A DNA stretch of 64,000 nt from Cyanidioschyzon merolae (taxonomy: Eukaryota): assembly GCA_000091205.1 (NCBI GenBank), contig AP006492.2. The stretch is one strand, 5' to 3'. The first letter of the stretch is position 1; each line of letters begins with the position of its first letter. Shown here piece by piece: positions 15,125 to 59,680 of this stretch. The translations under genes and the position numbers were made by a program. The notes below the pieces were generated by a model. The model was not told the DNA's origin. It did not search any database and saw only the letters and a program-made list of their open reading frames with translations.

Positions 15125-16469
15125 ATTCTGTAAAGGTTCGAAACCTGGGAACAGAACTACGAGTTCAACGTTCCGTTTTGATCTGCTATCGTGTAGGGGT
15201 GAACACCAGTGCCCCGGAGCGTCGTCCTGCCAATCATCGGGGGCAGTTGCTGCTGATCAGCGGCCAATCTTTATCCTTCCACTGGCACGATCACGACATA
15301 CACCATGAGGTTTAGGACCTGGAGGCCGACGGCTTTATTCCAAATGAGCCCATTCGTTGGCACTTGATCTATGATGTCTTGCACATCCAAGGCCCGTGAC
15401 TGATCTCCGATGCGTTGATTTCAATGGCCTCTGCAACCGGCAAGTATTAGCCAAGGTGGCTCGCTGTACTCGGCGCGATGAAGCCTAGAACGTCTGCACT
15501 AGCATGCCATTTTGTCTTCCCTTGTGTTATCTGCAGGGATTCAACAAATGGAATGTCTCCTGGATTGTGGAGAATGGTCACGGGAAGGCTTTATTCCTCC
15601 GGAATTTTTCGACCGAAACCTTCATGCACCAACACAACTGATACTCGGGACATACGACGCAATACGGCCTAATTGCAGGATCAGAGACTCGCAAAACATT
15701 TATGCCAGAATACCTGGGCGTATCGGCATGCCACCTCGGTACCCCGAACATCCACAACGCCGGTACCAGAACGGATGAAACCTACATCAGGAAACAACAC
15801 GGTACGATGGTCCATATCCAGCGCATCATGAAGCAAACTCTACGACCTTTATAACCTCACCCGAATGGTACGGAAAAGTAAATACTGATATAAAGAATTC
15901 TTGAGATATGGACGAAGGCAAATGACGAGCTGACGCGGAACCATACGAGATGGTATCGAGATCGAAGGAGAAGTCGTAACGAGCGCGAGAGACGCTTAAG
16001 ATCGACCAAGCGCATGGTGTTGTGGTCTCGTTCTCGGACACACGTGGCTAACACTCCAAGGAGCGCTGCAACGTGATACCGGCCTGTTTTGGATGACGTG
16101 CTTCTGCGTTTCTCTTGACAGAAATCTTGAGAGCACAGCACAATTCCTCCATAGATTCGAGAGCAGTGGTCGCTTTCGACGTCCTTTAAGTATGACCCGC
16201 ATTCTTCAAGTCTAATTATTTCCCAGTTAACACATGTGTACTGCAGTCTGTCGCATCGTTCGTGAGCTACGTCTGGTCTCTTTGAGCAAGTACGAAGCAT
16301 CCAAAGTCACTTGCGAAAAGCGTTGACGGGACTCGTTCATCGTTCCTCAGCCACAGGGATGAAATGAGAAGAAGCTGATCGGATGATGGAGACTGACGGC
16401 ATATCAATCTGCATGCACTATGTGCAACATAAACCCGGGTCGTGGACCGAGACTCCTTTTCAAAGTTTC

Positions 16470-17512
16470 AAGACAGACGAAGACGAAGACGCCGCGCTGA
16501 GCGTGTGGATCGCCCGATGAAGCACACGGCAGCCGTCGCAGTACGTTTCAATCCACAGGACAGATCCAACGATCTGAACGAAAAGCAGATGAAGCTGCAT
16601 ACGTTCTTCAGGGCTCCGTGCGAGCGCGAGTCGAGCACCTTGATCGCCAGCGCGCATGCGAACGACTGAAACAGCGGCATCGCGACCAATCTCGACGCTC
16701 TGAATACCGCATCGAGCAGCTAATCACGCTTTGATCGCTTCACGCTGACACTTCGTGTACGTCCAAATGGCTCATGTGGACGTCCTTCGGCAGGCCGACA
16801 CGGAACCGCGTCCGAGTCGCCGACGTTTTCGGCTTTATGGAGACCGGCAACGGACTTTCGCCAACCCGGTCCATGAGTTGGAAAAAGCAAATCACCGAAA
16901 AGCCGTATGCACTGGTGGTAGCCTACGGCAATGCGCGTTCTGTGACGCCTGAAGACAGCGCTCGTTTTCGCTCGACGAGCGCGTGCAACCAGTGCAGACA
17001 TTGATGCCGCACGATTCCCATCAACGAATTCCGGGCTTCGACGTACGCACACCATGAGCACGGGTGCACGCTAGATCTGCCTGAGACACAGAGCATGGAA
17101 CAGAGCCGAATACAATGGATGCTGTATTGTGAACTGAACAAGCGTCAAATGGCGCAGTACCTGGAAAAGGAGACGCATCCTACGATGTGATTCCGCGAAG
17201 AGATGATGCGCGCAACCACGAGATGCACCGAAAGCTGAACGCCTCAATCAAGATCCGGAAGCATCTCGTGGTTTCGGAGGATTCAGCGGTATTCTGTGGA
17301 GCGACACTTGTGAGCGCATCGTTTTGTATACAGTATATGCATTGTGTTGGCACGTCGAAGACTTGCAGGGAGAAAAATCAGCCGTCATCCGGGCTGGCAT
17401 TGGACGCTTGCCTGGAGCAGCGCGCATCTATAATGGGGTCCAGCAAGCAGGCAAGCATGAATCGCCATATATACATTGGGAATGGTCTCCCTGCGTCATT
17501 GGTGAACGATAA
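16470..17512. repeat. Interspersed repeat family A, copy 1 (~1.04 kb). About 97% identical to 32103..33142, direct orientation.
   Basis: The ORF pairs are duplicated exactly or nearly so, for example 16755..16952 and 32386..32583, 17187.. and 32818... Sharp similarity boundaries at 'agacgaagacgaagacgccgcgctgagcgtgtgg' on the left and '...ggtgaacgataa' on the right. No recognisable protein domain. Confidence 0.8.
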
Positions 17513-30528: not shown

Positions 30529-32102
30529 CCAAAATCGGCCGATGCACGTCTGCCGTCAGCGGTGCATCCAGACAGCTGTGCAGTGCATCGAGTGTTGTCG
30601 TACGCATTGCCCGTCCGTCTCCCTATTATCGGCAGGTGCAGGGGCATGAGATACCGAGGTAAATACTGAACGAGTGTTCCGGATAGATGAACCTCAGGTC
30701 ATATGAGCGAACTGTATAAGGATACCGCCAGACTCGCCGGACGTGCAGACCCAGCAGGGGCAAGCGCCTCACCATGATTCCTCTCGTTGCACGTCGTCAG
30801 TCGCGTTCGGTCTCTGTGCGGCGAGCGCACCAGTGTTCTAGGCGTCGTCACGGGTACGGACAGCAGGCTCGGCACCTCGAGGATCGTGTGAACGAATCCG
30901 TTTCTTCGAAGGGCAGTATGGATGGTAGAGGCCGCTGGAGCTTGGCGGTATCGTGCAGAACGATAGATGCCTCCCGTAGATGCAGATCACTAGTGCACAG
31001 TTGGGGATCTCTGCTCAGTGTAAACGCTTCGTAGATACGAGAAGAGTAAAAGCTATATGAATGACTGTAGCCTTGTCAATCCATTCCAATGCATACATTC
31101 ATCACGAGATACTACCAAAGACGCCACAAACTGTGAATTCTGCGTACGCTTGATACATATGCCCATGCAGAGACATGCATGGACCATGACACAGGCATGC
31201 TTCAGTGCGAGACGCTCTCGCGCTGATCATCACGCACATGCTTTCGCACTGGAATGAGAATGCTTACCAAAGGAGCGACGGGTTCTCCTCTCGCTCAATG
31301 AGAATTTATTCGGAGGGCATGGTGAATCTGTGTAAGTGTACTCGAAGAATGACAAAACGCTTTTCGTAAGCAAGAAACAAGCGCGAATGACCATGTCATT
31401 TTCCTGATGCTAATGGATACTTGTGCTCGCCTACAGATCCCAAAACGGACAGGGTCGAAAAACACTTCATCCGGCGTCGGAGCACCCGTCATGGATTCCA
31501 GTTCCTACCTGGCTATGTCCTCTTTTTAGACTACGTCGCTTTCCATCACTTAATGGCTGTTAAAGAATACGCAGAGAAGATCGCCATTGAGCCGCTCTTC
31601 GTGCCACCAGGTTCTCTCCTGTTCAATCGAATCGTTGTTGTCTTTTCTGTTGCCTAATGCAGTTTTTACGCTCGCAAATTCATACGTATGTCGTTCGCGT
31701 CCGTTGAACCATTCTTCGATGAGTCGCCCTCTACCCTAGCCTTCACACCTCGTCCCGCAAATGTTCATATGAGTTCTCCAGATACAGGGCTACGAGCTAT
31801 CCGCGATTCTCTGTAATCCGTCGAGCAAACATTCGTTCGACGATACACATGATGCTCGCGACAGAGGACGCAACACTCCCTGGCCGTAGGATCAGAGATT
31901 CGAACACGTGCTTTCCAGAAAGTGTTGACGCGATGCCGCATCGCGTAGGCAGTTGAAAGAATGCTCGAGTCCAGGTTCTAGACAATATGAAACACACCTC
32001 AGTAACCAAAACGATACCGGAGTTGATCTCGAGCACTTCATGAAGCGCACCCCGTGGGCGTTGGGTCCCATCGCACAGGCCTAGGAAAACGGGGACGGAC
32101 GA

Positions 32103-33142
32103 GAGACACGAAGACGAAGACGCCGCGCTGAGCGTGTGGATCCCCCGATGAAGCACACGGTAGCCGTCGCAGTACGTTTCAATCCACAGGTCAGATCCAA
32201 CGACCTGAACGAAAAGCAGATGAAGCTGCATACGTTCTTCAGGGCTCCGTACGAGCGCGAGTCGGGCAGCTTGATCGCCAGCGCGCATGCGAACGACTGA
32301 AACAGCGGCATCACGGCCAATCTCGACGCTCTGAATACCGCATCGAGCAGCTAATCACGCTTTGATCGCTTCACGCTGACACTTCGTGTACGTCCAAATG
32401 GCTCATGTGGACGTCCTTCGGCAGGCCGACACGGAACCGCGTCCGAGTCGCCGAAGTTTTCGGCTTTATGGAGACCCGCAACGGACTTTCGCCAACCCGG
32501 TCCATGAGTTGGAAAAAGCAAATCACCGAAAAGCCGTATGCACTGGTGGTAGCCTACGGCAATGCGCGTTCTGTGACGCCTGAAGACAGCGCTCGTTTCC
32601 GCTCGACGAGCGCGTGCAACCAGTGCAGACATTGATGCCGCACGATTCCCATCAACGAATTCCGGGCTTCGACGTACGCACATCATGAGCACGGGTGCAC
32701 GCTAGATCTGCCTGAGACACAGAGCATGGAACAGAGCCGAATACAATGGATGCTGTATTGTGAACTGAACAAGCGTCAAATGGCGCAGTACCTGGAAAAG
32801 GAGACGCATCCTACGATGTGATTCCGCGAAGAGATGATGCGCGCAACCACGAGATGCACCGAAAGCTGAACGCCTCAATCAAGATCCGGAAGCATCTCGT
32901 GGTTTCGGAGGATTCAGCGGTATTCTGTGGAGCGACACTTGTGAGCGCATCGTTTTGTATACAGTATATGCATTGTGTTGGCACGTCGAAGACTTGCAGG
33001 GAGAAAAATCAGCCGTCATCCGGGCTGGCATTGGACGCTTGCCTGGAGCAGCGCGCTTCTATAATGGGGTCCAGCAAGCAGGCAAGCATGAATCGCCATA
33101 TATACATTGGGAATGGTCTCCCTGCGTCATTGGTGAACGATA
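32103..33142. repeat. Interspersed repeat family A, copy 2. It lies ~280 bp to the left of Fanzor-like element copy 1.
   Basis: See copy 1 at 16470..17512. About 97% identity over ~1.04 kb. Confidence 0.8.
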
Positions 33143-33432
33143 ATCGTGTCACGCTATACGCTTTCGCGGAATATCTCGTGGTGCACACCCTGCTTCGCCA
33201 ACAGCTGGCTCCATCTCGCTGCTGACTCGTGCGACCTTCGCGCCACCCCAATGCGATCTCCAGCTGCACAAACACATACACATACACACACTGGAACACC
33301 CGTTCCACACAGGTGTGCTGTCCGCAGACGCCGGCTGTCCGACTGCTACCGATGTGCTCGTATTCACCACCGTTCGTGCGATCTGCAGCGGACGGGGCGC
33401 TATATCATCGGGCATCGTCGATGAAATGTAGT

Positions 33433-33454
33433 GGCGGGCGGAAAACCGCCCGCC
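33433..33454 (-). ncRNA. Candidate omega-RNA scaffold 3' hairpin of Fanzor-like copy 1.
   Basis: The plus strand reads 'ggcgggcgg aaaa ccgcccgcc', a perfect 9-bp GC stem with a 4-nt loop. It abuts the nuclease stop codon at 33455-33457 and sits ~9 nt inside the element boundary. This matches the TnpB/Fanzor arrangement in which the omega-RNA overlaps the 3' end of the ORF and ends at the element edge. Confidence 0.35.
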
Positions 33455-35052
33455 CTACACGAAATGTCTCCCACTGACGTGCAGACGCCTCCCAGTCTTT
33501 TTGGACCGGCCGCCTACTAAGGGTTTCAACTTTTTCTCATATAATTCCACCTTGAGAGGTTCTTCCGCGAAATTCTCTCTGGTCAACTCTGGAGGTCTTC
33601 TTTCTATCACCGCGCACCTCCTTATATTGATAGCGGCGTTAAAGTCTTGGTTCACAAACTTCATACGTTTCTTGCTATTGATTGTACTTCCGGATGCACC
33701 TAGTCCAGAAACTTTCGCTTTCCTTCCCATGTGCTCTTCTGTTAGCGCTCCGTACTTTTGTATATCTTCAGGGCTCCTCTGGCACTTTTTCATCCCCATC
33801 CTCTGAAGTGTACATCCCAACTCATCGTGTATAGGCGATTTCCGGAACTCATCGATCGGTATCGTAACGAAACGCCTGCGCACTCCTTGTATGTTCTTGT
33901 TGACGGCGCTGGTTGACACGCTTTCTGGGTCATCCAGTGCCCTGATCCATACGCTACTAAAAGCCTCTTACTCTTATCTTCCTTTCAGGCGCTCAACTGA
34001 TTGAAGAAATCCGCGGTCGCCCGCTGCTTCCCACAGTATAGATTAACGCGCAGACGAGCCCACCGGGGCTTGGCGTACTCTTTCCACGGCGCTTCCCAGT
34101 CAGCAACACGGACTTTCGTGAATTTCAGAAAAGTTCGAAAGTCCGCTCCTCGGCTCGTCACCTCGCTCATAGCTTCCAGGTGCTCGTTCGCTCCTGCATT
34201 CCATGTCTCAACTTTCTTCCTTGCATTCTTTATGCCCGATTCTCGACAGTATCTTGCTCTCGAGAGCTTGAAAAGACGCATGTCTTTCTGACGCAAGTCA
34301 CCGTCACTGCCATCTTCTGCACGCTTCGGTGCTGCGACGGCTATATTCATCGTGTTTCCGGGGTCCACGCCGACGACAAAGTCACTCTCATGCACCTCCT
34401 GCGTCGCAGGATCCGCCTCTTTCTTTTCTTCGTGCTTCGTCAGGGGCGAAGCCGAAGGCACGATAGGACGATCCGCCTTCAACCGCCGACAGTGTGCACA
34501 CATGGACACTCCATCGGTTTCGATCGTGCCCGTGAATACCCTCTGCTTGCTCACTTTGCGACGTTTGAAATAGAAGATATTCTTCCAGTACGTCTCCCGG
34601 CTTTCACCGGTGAACTCCGTCTTCCTTCCATCGAACTGCGGACAGGTCTCCTCCATGACGCCGTAGAGGACTCTGGAGTCGATAATCACATAGTGCGACT
34701 TGATGCTGCACAGCGGAGCGACGTAGAAGCGCTTACCCAGAAGCGCGGCCTTCTGTCGCTCCGGCTCTTCATTTGCTTTCTGACTCGGCTCCATCTCCGC
34801 CTTGCGCTCGAGTTTTCGGTTCAGGAATCCGAAATAGCGCACAATGGGGCGATAACATCTTTCTTCATCTCTTTTCATATCTGGTACCTTTTCCGCTCGA
34901 TTCGCCAGCGCCAAGACTGCACGGTGCTCTTGAATAGCCGCACGGATTACAGAAGCTTCACTCAGGCACCGGCGTGACGTCTTCATGTCGACAAATTCGA
35001 TCTCCTGTACGTTCTGGCGATCGTTCGTGATGCCGTCGATGATGGCCCACAT
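33455..35052 (-). CDS. TnpB-like, Fanzor-type RuvC nuclease, copy 1. It is split into ORFs 35052..33985 and 33919..33455 in different frames. Either a 41-nt GT-AG intron (33957..33997) joins them or it is a frameshifted pseudogene.
   Basis: The N-terminal ORF of 355 aa contains RuvC-I 'VGVDPGNT'. The C-terminal ORF contains a candidate RuvC-II Glu in 'VTIPIDEF' and RuvC-III '[10 protein letters not shown]'. Splicing 'gttgag...ttttag' out of the minus strand joins '...ADFFN' to '[22 protein letters not shown]...' in frame. Confidence 0.6.
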
Positions 35053-35914
35053 CGCGCGGCGAGAGAGGCCGGGGGGTCCAGCGCAAACATGGCGCGTATC
35101 ATGAAGCGTTCGAGGTTCACGATCATATCGTTCTTCAGGTGCGTGAGGTGCTTGACTGCCCCGCTGGTGTAAACACGCAAGTCACCCCTGTATCGAGTAA
35201 CGTTGAAGCGGTATTCAGCATCATTTTTCATGCCGGGCATCCACTCGCTCATTTCGCCGCGACGTTTCCCCTATAGCAAGCATGAGGTGACGAGTAAAGG
35301 TCTTGTAGAAGGCACGTTCCGAAACCTCAGCTGTTTCCAAGTGCGTCACGTCGCGATACATCTCCCTCGTCATATGCATCGGTCCTCAAGAAGCCTTGCA
35401 AACACTCCCGGAGTTCGACTCGGCACGGTTTCTGATGGCATCTCGCAACTTTTCCCCGTGCGGAGCAGTAGTATGCTTAAGAAGACAGGCTCTCACCACC
35501 ATCTCGTCGTATCGCCGTCTTTCTTGCAGCCTTTATTGTCGGACCTCCCGCTTTTGCTCCTTCGTCCTCTCCTGTTCTTCTGAACTCGGCACCGTTTTTT
35601 GTTTTTTCTCTGCCGGCTGTCGACGCTGTGCCCCCTGGATCCTCCATTTCCTTTTCCATGACTTTCCTTTTTTACATGTTTGGAAATGAGACTTCTTTGA
35701 ACGCTTCTGCTACAAACCGCGAAAAATCACTTGAAAACAGTTACTTGAGGGTTAGTACACAACTGAGGTGAAGGACTGTACTCTGCTACGACTACAACGC
35801 AAATACGACCTGTACGGTAGAGTAACAAGAAAACGATTAGGAAAGATCGCGTTTCCCTTCAACGGCGAGATGCGCGTCGTATCTGCTGGCTACCAGGCAT
35901 GGAGGTGGGCGTAT

Positions 35915-36590
35915 CGAGCGCATTATTTAGAACAAAGAACAGAGACTAACAACTTACTAGCAACGATATAACGATTTCTATCCCCATCTACGATGAACAT
36001 TAAAAGGGGAAAACTTTCCGTATCTTCGGAAGTTTAACTTATGGGTGGAGGGTCCCGCAAGCCGGACTAGTCGTCAAGGCTAGTGCTTCGTGCTCTCCCT
36101 CGTGGAAGGCGCCATGATGAGAGCTGCACAGGTCGTCCAAAACGCAGTTTTTTCTGGGACTCGGAGAATGTATGCTGCGTCTGGGCACCGCCCCAGGTAG
36201 TAGTGGGCTTCTAGTATATCGCTTCGCGCTCTCGCAGGCAGAAGGCCTGCCTGCCCAGTTTCCAGGCTCCCGGAATGATAATCAGCCCTGAATCCGGGTC
36301 AAATGTACCATTCTTCGAGACGACGCCTTCACTGGTATGGCAAATCCGTTCTGTCGCTGTGCAGCATGCGCTCCAGCGGTTTAGGCGCTACGACGTGTGC
36401 TCAGTGTAGACACTCGGCGCACGATAGAGCATATGAAACGACCAGTATATCCGCGAGTAAGCTTGAGAAATGGAACTTGAAGATAGGTGCAGCATGATGG
36501 ACGCTTTCGCGAATGCCATCATCCATCCACTCCGAAATCTCGGATTTGTGGTCAATGTACACGCGTACCATCGATAAAAAATCAGCGGCA
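35915..36590. repeat. Diverged repeat family C, copy 1, about 70-75% identical to 59005..59680.
   Basis: Shared blocks include 'ctagcaac.agata...ctacgat.aac.tt.aaaggggaaa..tt' and 'gcgcacgat.gaacgtacagaacgaccagta.atccg.gag...ggaacttgaag...gatggacgctttc.cgaatg'. The minus-strand ORFs 36401..36697 and 59414..59668 share 'FKFH..LL.D.LVV.Y..SCA'. Confidence 0.55.
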
Positions 36591-37289
36591 TCCTCCGCTG
36601 GACACCGGCGGGAGCTGCCACGTGGCAGCACAAACGTGCGATTGCAAAGCATCCGTGTACCCGTGTCGCCGTCCGCGGCAGCGCCTCGGAGCAGCAATCA
36701 CCGCCACGAGCACACGGCGGTGGCTGCACGTGTGCGTGCGCTTCTATAACGCCCGATAGAGCATTCGAATTCGGCGTTCTACCGTAGTGCGCAGCACCGA
36801 GCGCTAGACACGTTACGGAGCTTTCTTCACTTTTGTTTCATCATGGTTTGGGACTATAAGCTGCTCGACTCTGTATCCGTCAGTCCACTTGACTGCATCT
36901 ACCAGTTTTTCTGCCTTCCCTGTGCGTGGGGTGAGTTGTACGCGGTCGACCAAGGAGAGCGCTGTCTTCAGCCGCAGTGCCTCATAGGCACCCTCATCGC
37001 CTTCGTGCCGGTTTTAAACTGCTTTTGCTTTGCAAACCGGCGCGCTGAGCAGATGGAACGTATGGGAATGTACGTTGACTATCTTGAGGTATGCGCTGTT
37101 ATTTGTGGTTTTCCCAGCGCTTGCTGCTTTGTGCACCAGGAGCGACTGCAGTACAATGGAACAGGTGCAGAGCCGAAGCTCATTCTCATGGAGTAATTTC
37201 GGTTGACGACATATGACAGGATTTCTGGTCTGTATCTCCACGATCTAGGTAACTGAAGTTTATATCTGCTCTGCAGGATCTACTTGAAC

Positions 37290-48715: not shown

Positions 48716-49234
48716 TCAACAGAGCAGCACGCGTGTAGCAGCAACGACGCGTTCGTGCAGTCCGTAAATCCGATGCTTTCACGATCCGCTGGAATGCGGC
48801 GTGGTGCAGCGCGCTCGCGGGATCGCACCCCGAGATCCTTTCAGCTCGACGCCGGTGCGTCGGGCTATCTTCCATAATTGGACAAAACCTTCCTAAAAGA
48901 TCAGGGATCCCCAACGGTGCGCGGTGAAGCACCGATCATACCACGCCCTATCTCCAAGGTCCATGGTCCATAATTCTTCTCGGATACATTGGTCACTTTG
49001 TACGTTCTATCGTGTGCCGCGTATCTGCATTCCTGCATCGGTGATCGCGCCTATAGCGCCGTTACGGTCATAGCAGAGAGACAGGACGACGTTGGCGTAC
49101 CCCAGAGGACGTCGGCTCGAGATGGTAAACTGATACCCAGGCGCAGATGCCTCTCAGCCTTTTTTGACCGTCAGACTGCCATCAATTTCAGTTTATTCAG
49201 GCACGCTTCGAGACTGTGAGGCTGCACGAAGCAA

Positions 49235-49490
49235 GAGGATCGCGCTAGCCCCGAGGGTCTCGTCTCCAGCACCGCACATCATTTGATATTGATAGCGGCG
49301 TTGAAGACTCGGTTCACGAACTCCATGCATGTATTGCCTCTGGTGGTGCTCGCCAATGGAAGGAGTCCTCAAACTAGTGCCCTCAGTGCCATTTGCTGCT
49401 CTGTCAGCTCTCCGTGCTTTTCTATCGTCGAAATGCTCCGCTGCATTCTCCCCATCCCGATCTTTGAATGGTACATCCCAGCTCATCCCT
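49235..49490 (-). pseudogene. Degenerate relic of the Fanzor/TnpB-like nuclease 3' region, the third copy, about 75% nucleotide identity.
   Basis: The minus strand encodes '...LASTTRGNTCMEFVNRVFNAAINIK*' against intact '...[29 protein letters not shown]'. The RuvC-III Asp is replaced by Val and a premature stop follows. Plus-strand 49275.. 'atattgatagcggcgttgaagactcggttcacgaact' aligns to 33625.. 'atattgatagcggcgttaaagtcttggttcacaaact'. Confidence 0.6.
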
Positions 49491-54223: not shown

Positions 54224-55962
54224 TCACCGCCTCGTCTGGAGATGGAGGATGCACTTTAGTATCGAGAATGATGCCGTGCACGCGACCTCGGGTGACACTC
54301 GCGAACGCCGTTCAAAAGTCGAAAGCAGTCGCCAGCGGTTTACAGTAGTGGCGGCGAACGCGCCCAAGACAAAACTTCTCCAACTGACGTGCAGACGCCT
54401 CCCAGCCTTTTTGGACCGGCCGCCTACTAAGGGTTTCAACTTTTTCTCATATAATTCCACCTTGAGAGGTTCTTCCGCGAAATTCTCTCTGGTCAACTCT
54501 GGAGGTCTTCTTTCTATCACCGCGCACCTCCTTACATTGATAGCGGCGTTAAAGTCTTGGTTCACAAACTTCATACGTTTCTTGCTATTGATTGTACTTC
54601 CGGATGCACCTAGTCCAGAAACTTTCGCTTTCCTTCCCATGTGCTCTTCTGTTAGCGCTCCGTACTTTTGTATATCTTCAGGGCTCCTCGGGCACTTTTC
54701 CATCTCCACCCTCTGAAGTGTACATCCCAACTCATCGTGTATAGGCGATTTCCGGAACTCATCGATCGGTATCGTAACGAAACGCCTGCGCACTCCTTGT
54801 ATGTTCTTGTTGACGGCGCTGGTTGACACGCTTTCTGGGTCATCCAGTGCCCTGATCCATACGCTACTAAAAGCCTCTTACTCTTATCTTCCTTTCAGGC
54901 GCTCAACTGATTGAAGAAATCCGCGGTCGCCCGCTGCTTCCCACAGTATAGATTAACGCGCAGACGAGCCCACCGGGGCTTGGCGTACTCTTTCCACGGC
55001 GCTTCCCAGTCAGCAACACGGACTTTCGTGAATTTCAGAAAAGTTCGAAAGTCCGCTCCTCGGCTCGTCACCTCGCTCATAGCTTCCAGGTGCTCGTTCG
55101 CTCCTGCATTCCATGTCTCAACTTTCTTCCTTGCATTCATTATGCCCGATTCTCGACAGTATCTTGCTCTCGAGAGCTTGAAAAGACGCATGTCTTTCTG
55201 ACGCAAGTCACCGTCACTGCCATCTTCTGCACGCTTCGGTGCTGCGACGGCTATATTCATCGTGTTTCCGGGGTCCACGCCAACGACAAAGTCACTCTCA
55301 TGCACGTTCTGTGTGGCAGGATCCGCCTCCTTCTCATCTTCATGCTTCGTCACGGGCGAAGCCGAAGGCACGATAGGACGATCCGCCTTCAACCGCCGAC
55401 AGTGTGCACACATGGACACTCCATCGGTTTCGATCGTGCCCGTGAATACCCTCTGCTTGCTCACTTTGCGACGTTTGAAATAGAAGATATTCTTCCAGTA
55501 CGTCTCCCGGCTTTCACCGGTGAACTCCGTCTTCCTTCCATCGAACTGCGGACAGGTCTCCTCCATGACGCCGTAGAGGACTCTGGAGTCGATAATCACA
55601 TAGTGCGACTTGATGCTGCACAGCGGAGCGACGTAGAAGCGCTTACCCAGAAGCGCGGCCTTCTGTCGCTCCGGCTCTTCATTTGCTTTCTGACTCGGCT
55701 CCATCTCCGCCTTGCGCTCGAGTTTTCGGTTCAGGAATCCGAAATAGCGCACAATGGGGCGATAACATCTTTCTTCATCTCTTTTCATATCTGGTACCTT
55801 TTCCGCTCGATTCGCCAGCGCCAAGACTGCACGGTGCTCTTGAATAGCCGCGCGGATTACAGAAGCTTCATTCAGGCACCGGCGTGACGTCTTCTTGTCG
55901 ACAAATTCGATCTCCTGTACGTTCTGGCGATCGTTCGTGATGCCGTCGATGATGGCCCACAT
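54224..55962 (-). CDS. TnpB-like, Fanzor-type RuvC nuclease, copy 2, with the same split-ORF structure and the same putative 41-nt intron at 54867..54907. The copy-1 stop codon is lost, so the ORF reads 50 codons through the element terminus into the flank.
   Basis: The ORFs 55962..54895 and 54829..54224 differ from copy 1 by a few residues: K for M at 23, N for S at 31, 'LTKHEEKK' becomes 'VTKHEDEK', E to N, K to M, and 'QRMGMKKCQ' becomes 'QRVEMEKCP'. '[14 protein letters not shown]' is retained. Confidence 0.6.
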
Positions 55963-56788
55963 CGCGCGGCGAGAGAGGCCGGGGGGTCCAGCGCAAACAT
56001 GGCGCGTATCATGAAGCGTTCGAGGTTCACGATCATATCGTTCTTCAGGTGCGTGAGGTGCTTGACTGCCCCGCTGGTGTAAACACGCAAGTCACCCCTG
56101 TATCGAGTAACGTTGAAGCGGTATGCAGCATCATTTTTCATGCCGGGCATCCACTCGCTCATTTCGCCGCGACGTTTCCCCTATAGCAAGCATGAGGTGA
56201 CGAGTAAAGGTCTTGTAGAAGGCACGTTCCGAAACCTCAGCTGTTTCCAAGTGCGTCACGTCGCGATACATCTCCCTCGTCATATGCATCGGTCCTCAAG
56301 AAGCCTTGCAAACACTCCCGGAGTTCGACTCGGCACGGTTTCTGATGGCATCTCGCAACTTTTCCCCGTGCGGAGCAGTAGTATGCTTAAGAAGACAGGC
56401 TCTCACCACCATCTCGTCGTATCGCCGTCTTTCTTGCAGCCTTTATTGTCGGACCTCCCGCTTTTGCTCCTTCGTCCTCTCCTGTTCTTCTGAACTCGGC
56501 ACCGTTTTTTGTTTTTTCTCTGCCGGCTGTCGACGCTGTGCCCCCAGGATCCTCCATTTCCTTTTCCATGACTTTCCTTTTTTACATATTTGGAAATGAG
56601 ACTTCTTTGACCGCTTCTGCTACAAACCGCGAAAAATCACTTGAAAACAGTTACTTGAGGGTTAGTACACAACTGAGGTGAAGGACTGTACTCTGCTACG
56701 ACTGCAACGCAAATACGACCTGTACGGTAGAGCAACAAGAAAACGATTAGGAAAGATCGCGTTTCCCTTCAACGGCGAGATGCGCGTC
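54343..56788 (-). mobile_element. Fanzor/TnpB-like element, copy 2 (~2.45 kb), 98-99% identical to copy 1 and in the same orientation 20.9 kb away.
   Basis: Collinear with 33425..35878 at a constant offset of 20910 nt across the gene. Indels occur only in the 3'-terminal ~40 nt. The flanking DNA is unrelated. Confidence 0.65.
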
Positions 56789-59004: not shown

Positions 59005-59680
59005 ATCTATCGAAAGAACAGAAATCAAAAACTGATTAGCAACAAGATAAGAAATGCTTTCCACCTCTACGATAACCGTTGAAAGGGGAAAGATTTCTGT
59101 AGTTTCGAAAGTTTGGCTTCTAGGCGCAAGGTCATGCGAGCCGGACGAGTCTGCGGGGCTAGCGTTTCATGCTTCCCCCAGCGGCACTCGCTGAGGCGAC
59201 ATCAGATCAGCACATCCGCAACGCCGTTCATTCTGGCATCACAAGTCGTTGGAATGCGTCTGGGCGTCGCCCTGGTCGCAGTGGCTTCCTAGCATTCCGC
59301 TTAGTGTCGCCACAGGCAGTAAGTCGATCTGCGGAGCTTGCAAGCCCCCATAATGATTATGTTACTCGGACCCCGTGTCGAATGAACCACGTCTCGAGTC
59401 GACGCCCTCAGTGTCATGGCAAAGCCGTTCTGTCTCCGTGCTGCATCCGCACGATCAGTATTGAGGCGCTCCTACGGGTGCTCATGGCAAGTTTGGCGCA
59501 CGATGGAACGTACAGAACGACCAGTACATCCGAGAGCAGGTCATGGAACTTGAAGGTGCTGTTCAGCGTGATGGACGCTTTCCCGAATGTCAATTTCCAT
59601 CCCGCAATCTGGGATCCATGGTATATGTACTGAACCTGTAAAACCAAAAAGACTGGAATCAGTCGCAACGATGACTCAAA
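59005..59680. repeat. Diverged repeat family C, copy 2.
   Basis: See 35915..36590. Confidence 0.55.

Follow-up and report, generated by a model that had tools for sequence, protein, structure and literature searches.

Two near-identical copies of a transposon-borne Fanzor gene lie on the minus strand of a 64,000-nucleotide (nt) stretch of the Cyanidioschyzon merolae 10D genome (contig AP006492.2; the whole stretch is hereafter called the window), and directly beside the stop codon of one of them (copy 1) stands a perfect hairpin, close to the point where the two copies cease to resemble each other. The locus raises the question of whether this hairpin is the terminal scaffold of an omega-RNA at the edge of the element, with a guide read from the adjoining flank, as an original prediction made from the letters alone proposed, or whether it is part of something longer. 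The copy-1 hairpin is real and non-random. It is the first stem-loop of a conserved 3′ tail of a decayed Fanzor1 element of the CMe-1A family, and by analogy with published Fanzor1 complexes we regard this tail as probably the omega-RNA scaffold of the once-active element rather than a chance remnant or a purely DNA-level signal.

The Hairpin Beside the Stop Codon

The plus strand reads ggcgggcgg aaaa ccgcccgcc at 33433–33454, a perfect stem of 9 base pairs (bp) with a 4-nt loop, and the cta at 33455–33457 directly next to it is a TAG on the minus strand, so that this part of the original prediction can be read off the sequence as it stands. The features of this site are as follows.

33433–33454, minus strand: stem-loop 1 of copy 1, a perfect 9-bp all-G/C stem with a UUUU loop, an unusually long form of the stem of the family.
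33428–33458, minus strand: extended stem of copy 1, in which GUAG (including the stop codon) pairs with CUAC across one bulged A, 13 bp in total.
33455–33457, minus strand: TAG stop codon of copy 1, at the conserved stop position of the family.

Folded as RNA on the gene strand the extended stem reaches −25.9 kcal/mol (z = −6.25), a stability that none of 200 shuffled sequences equaled, and folded as DNA the hairpin reaches −16.4 kcal/mol (z = −7.3). No other perfect stem in the window reaches 9 bp with a loop of 3–8 nt. First-order Markov simulations give an expectation of 1.57 such hairpins per window for any composition, so that its length alone lies within chance, and of 0.02 for an all-G/C stem. 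A homologous stem-loop is found at the same place in about 70 other copies of the family. The copy-1 end with hairpin and flank recurs in an environmental contig (L084), identical over 221 aligned bases, and the hairpin is therefore no assembly artifact. A rho-independent (intrinsic) terminator was considered and excluded: the stem lacks a downstream T-run on both strands, and C. merolae is a eukaryote.

The perfection of the stem is peculiar to copy 1. Among 71 distinct copies stem-loop 1 measures 3 bp in 6, 4 bp in 12, 5 bp in 27 and 6 bp in 25, and the 9-bp stem (13 bp with the GUAG/CUAC extension) occurs in copy 1 only, among the 82 copies compared. Its nearest relatives read GGCGCGG-TTTT-CCCGCC (loci L002, L057, L008, and L051); relative to these, copy 1 has an additional GG in the 5′ arm and an additional GCC in the 3′ arm or, in an equivalent description, has GGCG and CGCC each doubled, and the two changes compensate each other. 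The 9-bp form looks like the product of symmetrical 4-nt duplications (GGCG.GGCG / CGCC.CGCC) or of quasi-palindrome correction.

A Conserved Tail Past the Stop Codon

The 3′ ends of 82 copies were aligned, taken from 79 metagenome loci retrieved via alignment of the C-terminal 200 residues, from L002, and from the window; many of the loci are the same genomic site in different samples, which brings the number of independent copies nearer to 50. In these 82 copies a non-coding tail extends 61–67 nt past the stop and then gives way to unrelated flank. The tail consists, in order, of stem-loop 1 (GGCG...CGCC, usually 5–6 bp), which can take in the UAG pairing with CUA, a linker ACTACTGTACACCG, and a longer stem-loop 2. 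The codon at the stop position is TAG in 42 copies and TAA in 10. The consensus after the stop is GGCG(G/C)G..(loop)..CGCC ACTACTGTACACCG(Y)(Y)GG (CGA) CGTCGTTCGACTTTCGAACGGCGTT(T)G(G), the last part of which reads (C)AACGTTTTTCTTTTGAAAGGCGTTTGT in a second subfamily form, and stem-loop 2 occurs in two re-registered forms, CGTCGTTCG-ACTTT-CGAACGGCG or AACGTTTTTC-TTTT-GAAAGGCGTT. Mean per-column identity is 0.84, 0.85, and 0.74 at codon positions 1, 2, and 3, respectively, 0.72 in the tail, and 0.29 in the flank from about +63 nt after the stop.

Because conservation reaches 61–67 nt past the stop and takes in a second stem-loop, the hairpin is the 5′-proximal stem-loop of the tail and does not lie at the edge of the element, where the original prediction had placed it. 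A hidden Markov model (HMM) of the tail, searched with nhmmer, matches copy 2 at 54372–54302 over HMM positions 1–68 (E = 1e-17), a match that includes the sequence formerly proposed as the guide of copy 2 (cactactgtaaaccgctggcgactg). In copy 1 the same model matches positions 3–40 only (E = 0.53), and the formerly proposed guide, tacatttcatcg..., follows this partial tail. All 87 matches of the tail HMM in the fetched loci adjoin a Fanzor C-terminus, and no ‘ghost’ tails without a Fanzor gene were found in these loci. The ends of the two window copies comprise the following.

54301–54364, minus strand: complete 64-nt tail of copy 2, with a degenerate stem-loop 1, the linker ACTACTGTAAACCG, and stem-loop 2.
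54365–54367, minus strand: lost stop of copy 2, TTG at the stop-codon position of the family.
33364–33376, minus strand: possible remnant of the last bases of the tail in copy 1, CGAACGGTGGTGA, 13 nt, a weak likeness seen by eye that nhmmer did not detect.

The stop of copy 2 is taken as lost because TTG stands where copy 1 has TAG. The hairpin of copy 2 is degenerate, as had been predicted: at 54350–54364 copy 2 reads ggcggcgaacgcgcc, which folds weakly (−6.0 kcal/mol, z = 0.3), and indels separate the two copies in the hairpin region. The last bases common to both are CCACTAC, ending at 33428, close to the ~33425 originally given. Past CCACTAC copy 1 has no recognizable tail sequence and no recognizable stem-loop 2, and its downstream region has no relatives in the fetched loci. 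A transposon splitting the copy-1 tail was considered and rejected, the tail-like matches at 31355–31371 and 16309–16325 being weak and unconvincing.

These observations leave very little room for the explanation from which the question arose, namely that the hairpin is the 3′ terminal omega-RNA scaffold at a boundary near 33425, with the minus-strand flanks tacatttcatcg... (copy 1) and cactactgtaaaccg... (copy 2) as guides. It could draw on the loss of resemblance between the window copies at about 33428 and on the identity of the gene as a Fanzor, which is confirmed below. The copy-2 ‘guide’, however, recurs as conserved sequence in almost all of the 82 copies, with a second conserved stem-loop behind it, the boundary of the family lies about 35–40 nt further on, and copy 1 simply lacks the second half of the tail. 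We therefore judge this explanation highly improbable.

Beyond the alignable tail come 12–16 less conserved nt that are A-poor and G/T-rich, which may be accounted for by either a longer stem-loop 2 or a target-site preference. The flanks past the tail (about 60 loci, e.g., L068 4663–4680) pair with the C/A-rich linker at −11.3 kcal/mol against −8.8 kcal/mol for random sequence (p = 3e-7); as a class they do so above random because they are G/T-rich. Specific pairing of a copy’s own flank with its own linker was rejected, the energies being −11.1 kcal/mol and −10.9 kcal/mol for own flanks and those of other copies, respectively, with uniform ranks.

Identity and Decay of the Gene

The minus-strand open reading frames (ORFs) beside the hairpin contain at least the RuvC-type motifs VGVDPGN and IDEFRKS and have 88 relatives in the protein collection. 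A profile built from 17 family members and searched against the PDB matched the Fanzor1 proteins PpFz1 from Parasitella (9cf0, E = 8e-19), SpuFz1 from Spizellomyces (8gkh, E = 1.7e-14), and GtFz1 from Guillardia (9cer, E = 0.025); a single-sequence PDB search gave no match, the profile search alone being successful. On the strength of this profile match the gene of copies 1 and 2 is assigned to Fanzor1, in agreement with the earlier identification. Local Pfam and NCBIfam libraries gave no match for the window ORFs or for intact homologs, the precomputed Pfam annotation of the family proteins is PF26935 (DUF8286), and an exact database look-up of the two window ORFs found no record.

The RuvC motifs D...E...D (DPG, DEFRTS, NRD) are present in the family, the first two in the form VDADPGN and VDEFRTS, and the window copies carry an R-to-Q replacement beside the last catalytic aspartate (NQD for NRD). 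Of the C4 zinc finger between RuvC-II and RuvC-III, a motif given by Bao and Jurka, the CxxC pairs are missing from the family. The corresponding region of the CMe-1 clade reads TSYTHHELGC...C, then RGLLALVSTT (proteins P0002–P0014 and P0081; window 33700–33860), and the clade without CxxC pairs includes a green-algal relative (Tetrabaena). An HHCC variant of the zinc finger is conceivable in CMe-1.

CMe-1A has been described from C. merolae as a family of about 150 copies that match the consensus at about 80% identity, with a length of about 3 kilobases (kb), a 5′ part of 635 bp common to TE-N2_CMe, no terminal inverted repeats, and undetermined target duplications (Bao and Jurka, 2013, Mobile DNA 4:12, PMC3627910). 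The copies in the window belong to CMe-1A, the match being made to this published description: the order is a 5′ module of about 710 nt, a 2.4-kb core, and the tail, and no inverted repeat was found.

33455–35659, minus strand: Fanzor1 (CMe-1A) pseudogene of copy 1, recognized by its lesions and by the profile match to PDB Fanzor1 proteins.

Both copies are pseudogenes. In copy-1 coordinates, the lesions found in both are two extra C (a +2 frameshift) at 35071–35076, an in-frame TGA at 33985–33987 where relatives have Leu, and a 1-nt deletion near 33878, and the N-terminal part of both contains further breaks of the reading frame. Nonsense mutations are also common to several copies of the family (TAA after RENF.G; TGA after FFNQLSA), and whole subfamilies have therefore descended from copies that were already broken.

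Structure of the Tail and Its Reading as a Guide-RNA Scaffold

The published Fanzor1 omega-RNA consists of a scaffold followed by a variable guide of 14–15 nt (PMC10432273). Stem-loop 1 measures 7 bp in the three solved Fanzor1 complexes, where it forms the conserved contact with the protein, and in SpuFz1 and PpFz1 one further stem-loop precedes the guide in a region that is little constrained (PMC11423790). As the CMe-1 tail has the same order and size, the hairpin of copy 1 would correspond to the 5′-side stem-loop 1 of such a scaffold. In the favored reading the tail would have specified the omega-RNA scaffold of a once-active element and possibly also the right-end signal of the transposon. 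The guide would begin only after stem-loop 2, which in copy 2 would place its start below about 54300 (GAGTGTCACCC...). No scaffold–guide junction exists in copy 1, and tacatttcatcg does not mark one, because the copy-1 tail lacks stem-loop 2. The proposal that this is omega-RNA territory is thus retained for the conserved non-coding segment past the stop, whose layout resembles that of the published scaffolds (PMC10432273; PMC11423790), and abandoned for the hairpin as the 3′ terminal scaffold. A literature search found no paper or supplement tying Cyanidioschyzon to an omega-RNA.

We put forward more tentatively, and again by analogy, that the tail could be a genuine compact Fanzor1 scaffold of about 61–67 nt whose first stem-loop starts within the stop codon, and that the roughly 150 relics in this thermo-acidophilic red alga could record a once-active, resurrectable RNA-guided nuclease; this stronger claim is possible but somewhat doubtful. 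If it were true, a nuclease resurrected from the consensus would be a heat- and acid-adapted protein with a very short guide RNA, and the symmetrical expansion of stem-loop 1 in copy 1 would show a stem changing by paired duplications.

Folding of single sequences is in line with the two-stem layout. In consensus-like tails stem-loops 1 and 2 form on either side of an unpaired linker, with z = −3.5 to −4.5 (examples: −26.3 kcal/mol, z = −3.5; −32.2 kcal/mol, z = −4.5), and stem-loop 2 on its own reaches z values down to −5.6. When an explicit two-stem structure was imposed, 80–83% of the cells paired in register as compared with 36–60% when the 3′ partner was slid. Consensus folding by subfamily supported stem-loop 2 and did not cleanly support stem-loop 1. 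The two forms of stem-loop 2 are about five substitutions and a 3-nt insertion apart and both give 9–12-bp hairpins in shifted register, and this pair is the sole structural evidence at the level of lineages.

Several observations weigh against the scaffold reading. The plus strand of the copy-1 hairpin folds as well as the gene strand, and folding can therefore not pick the strand. Many copies, including copy 2, have weak stems; the mean z of stem-loop 2 is −1.3, and the whole copy-2 tail folds unremarkably (z = +0.8). The original prediction had looked to compensatory covariation across further copies, and in mixed as well as single-subfamily alignments neither the covariation score nor the number of double changes rose above column shuffles for either stem. 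RNAalifold recovered neither stem-loop in the same two kinds of alignment, and covariation between the stop codon and CTA was found in one locus only (TAA with TTA). Since dead copies mutate neutrally once inserted, this absence of covariation says little against a function in the former master copies. At 0.72 against 0.74, the tail shows no extra constraint relative to third codon positions. The right end of the tail is placed only to within about 15 nt, because the G/T-rich composition and, in some subfamilies, a common TTYCAGGGGTGC persist just past the alignable part. Finally, the longest frame leading up to the conserved stop is 551 codons among the 82 copies (L002–L081 and the window), which makes present-day activity of the element unlikely. 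An Rfam scan of 32800–36800 gave no match.

Part of this evidence would equally suit an explanation in which the stem-loop is functionless, GGCG...CGCC being kept by descent and the copy-1 palindrome being a neutral accident (slippage or quasi-palindrome correction) in a dead element. The missing covariation, the likeness of the tail to third codon positions, the single occurrence of the 9-bp form among 82 copies, and the death of the gene all fit it. The position of the stem-loop, on the other hand, is that of the conserved stem-loop 1 of every solved Fanzor1 omega-RNA (PMC11423790), all four subfamily variants keep at least 4–6 bp despite different inner sequences, the two insertions in copy 1 compensate each other, and the identical sequence is present in an environmental population. 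A neutral origin of this kind appears improbable to us, and we continue to favor the omega-RNA scaffold.

The Two Copies and Their Shared Core

The original prediction had taken the terminus to diverge faster than the rest of the element. This is not borne out: the identities given above place the family tail beside third codon positions, and the 5′ end of the stretch shared by the two copies shows the same local drop in similarity as the 3′ end. The features concerned are listed below.

33451–35878, minus strand: 98.7% identical block in copy 1, without indels relative to copy 2, probably a tract of gene conversion within a copy that is otherwise older and more diverged.
54361–56788, minus strand: 98.7% identical block in copy 2, a Fanzor1 pseudogene that shares its frameshifts and in-frame TGA with copy 1.
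35879–36590, minus strand: 5′ module of copy 1, about 710 nt, with 68–70% identity to a subset of the family (L004, L026, L059, L018, L039/L040).
49234–49487, minus strand: third CMe-1 Fanzor C-terminus fragment in the window, older, with no tail match by the tail HMM.

The block differs between copies 1 and 2 at 32 positions and contains no indels; six of the 32 differences fall within 33456–33472 and 11 are clustered in 34372–34443. The block also breaks off sharply at its 5′ end (35878), past which homology to the family core persists in both copies for about 50–75 nt, at only about 60–77% identity. Copy 1 then enters the ~710-nt module, which is probably the TE-N2_CMe-like 5′ part of CMe-1A, and copy 2 does not. 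The 5′ break recurs at nearly the same point in a third near-identical copy (L001). Because identity drops at both ends of the block while homology continues, we infer gene conversion between old, diverged insertions: the inner 2.4 kb of copies 1 and 2 would have been homogenized by ectopic gene conversion and the termini would have kept their older divergence, which would also account for the lesions shared by the two copies.

The 5′ Modules and a Possible DNA Signal at the Right End

Two further copies of the ~0.7-kb 5′ module (probably TE-N2_CMe), without an attached Fanzor core, lie at 59013–59630 and 48947–49120 and are 66–69% identical to 35879–36590. Eight loci contain two CMe-1 copies in the same orientation at a distance of 3.1–3.9 kb (L013/L021, L027, L030, L035, L048, L066, L006), and in L027, L066, L077, and L035 the next 5′ module begins about 40 nt past the tail of the first copy, with a shared TCGATGTACGGGTT in front of it. 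Random insertion would not be expected to produce head-to-tail arrays of this kind. Between the RMND1 gene and the 5′ module of copy 1, at 36745–36816 on the minus strand, the window itself contains a tail-like sequence (GTCTAG CGCTCGGTGCTGCGC ACTAC GGTAGAACGCCG A TTCGAATGCTCTATCGGGCGTT), which is not significant on its own (nhmmer E = 3.1) and may be the remnant of an older copy arranged head-to-tail with copy 1.

Arrangements of this sort bear on another explanation, that the tail, above all stem-loop 2 and also the stem-loop of copy 1, is a DNA right-end signal for a rolling-circle or single-strand transposase (Helitron, IS91, or IS200/IS605 type) rather than, or in addition to, an RNA scaffold. 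Terminal inverted repeats are absent from CMe-1A (PMC3627910), and a search for inverted repeats between the 5′ start of the core and the tail in 21 loci gave z values of about 0. The 3′ ends are constant and the 5′ parts consist of at least four modules with nested truncations, of which module A starts at a T-run; the same constant-3′/variable-5′ pattern is known for Helitron2-borne Fanzor1 families (Bao and Jurka). The two head-to-tail copies in eight loci, the position of stem-loop 2 about 5–17 nt from the end of conservation, and the equal stability of the hairpin in DNA and in RNA point the same way. However, neither a RepHel nor a Y1 transposase was seen in the fetched loci, in which no systematic search for RepHel was made; asymmetric terminal inverted repeats were not found, and the 3′ ends are not CTRR. 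The two functions need not exclude each other, since the right-end hairpin of IS200/IS605 sits within the omega-RNA region. We hold a DNA signal in place of, or beyond, the scaffold to be unlikely, though deserving of some weight, and retain the scaffold as the favored explanation.

Other Repeats and Arrangements in the Window

A second pair of repeats on the plus strand (16471–17512 and 32102–33143, 98.5% identical) encodes, with frameshifts, part of a far more distant Fanzor-like protein (34–41% identity to residues 484–688 of P0003, tblastn E = 6e-20) and may represent a second Fanzor family in C. merolae. The repeat at 32102–33143 is convergent with copy 1, its end lying 284 nt short of the hairpin, and a short CA/CATA microsatellite (acaaacacatacacatacacacac) lies at 33262–33292 between the two convergent Fanzor elements.

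In all, three unrelated repeat pairs in the window are 98.5–98.7% identical (27972–29375/39996–41477, 16471–17512/32102–33143, and 33451–35878/54361–56788), with offsets of 12.1, 15.6, and 20.9 kb, respectively. Their equal identity suggests one duplication episode or ongoing homogenization in this region of the chromosome. Three metagenome assemblies join the upstream flank of copy 1 (RMND1) via one element to the downstream flank of copy 2 (G-patch, EB1 ... LytB), namely L082/L085 (Ga0080006_1103189), L086 (Ga0078972_1009181), and L087 (ERZ27247235 k141_358377), corresponding to 33451–56788 of the window. One of the three also switches at the 27972–29375/39996–41477 repeat, and a fourth contig (L084) has the arrangement of strain 10D. 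The join has two possible explanations: the assemblies walked across collapsed repeats, or the 20.9-kb unit truly occurs as a tandem or circular structural variant. In L009 the element combines copy-1-like, copy-2-like, and private variants in a mosaic. The genes of the window that neighbor the copies are intron-less, and some encode plastid-related enzymes. The products of four ordinary genes in the window are identical to C. merolae 10D proteins in GenBank.

Implications

As it stands, the locus is an ordinary decayed transposon of an already described family. Should the tail prove to be an omega-RNA scaffold, a Fanzor guide RNA would for the first time be defined in a red alga, C. merolae, and the family consensus could yield a small and possibly thermostable editor. 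For genome scans the locus offers three cautions: two near-identical copies are insufficient to place the end of a transposon, gene conversion can mimic fast-evolving termini, and a striking perfect hairpin may be a one-off form of a modest family feature.

Comparison with Known Systems

The Helitron2-borne Fanzor1 families CRe-1, CRe-2, and CRe-3 of Chlamydomonas (Bao and Jurka, 2013) resemble CMe-1 in their constant 3′ ends with a terminal hairpin, in their heterogeneous or truncated 5′ ends, and in having no terminal inverted repeats. Unlike these families, CMe-1 yielded neither asymmetric terminal inverted repeats nor a RepHel partner nor variable target duplications.

The IS200/IS605 TnpB systems would share with CMe-1, on the favored reading, a guide-RNA scaffold at the right end, a guide derived from the flank, and a subterminal hairpin able to serve both transposase and RNA. 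In IS200/IS605 the omega-RNA overlaps the 3′ end of tnpB, whereas the conserved part in CMe-1 starts at the stop codon; CMe-1 further differs in the absence of a TnpA and in its eukaryotic host.

Closer in layout are the omega-RNAs of SpuFz1 and PpFz1 (Saito et al., 2023, Nature; Xu et al., 2024, Cell), in which the scaffold, like the tail of CMe-1, lies downstream of the stop and consists of a stem-loop 1 of about 6–7 bp, a linker, and a stem-loop 2, followed by variable sequence. The putative scaffold of CMe-1 measures 61–67 nt, against 75 nt in SpuFz1/PpFz1. Unlike these systems, CMe-1 has no flanking inverted repeats, its zinc-finger cysteines are not conserved, and all sampled copies are decayed. 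The protein family was matched by profile, and the RNAs are likened by layout and not by matching letters.

The closest counterpart remains CMe-1A itself as described by Bao and Jurka (2013), with which the copies in the window share the host, the Fanzor1 protein, the multi-copy and old character, a unit of about 3 kb, a 5′ module of 0.6–0.7 kb, and the lack of terminal inverted repeats and of clear target duplications. That description includes no 3′ tail, stem-loops, or any RNA, and it is these features that are described here.

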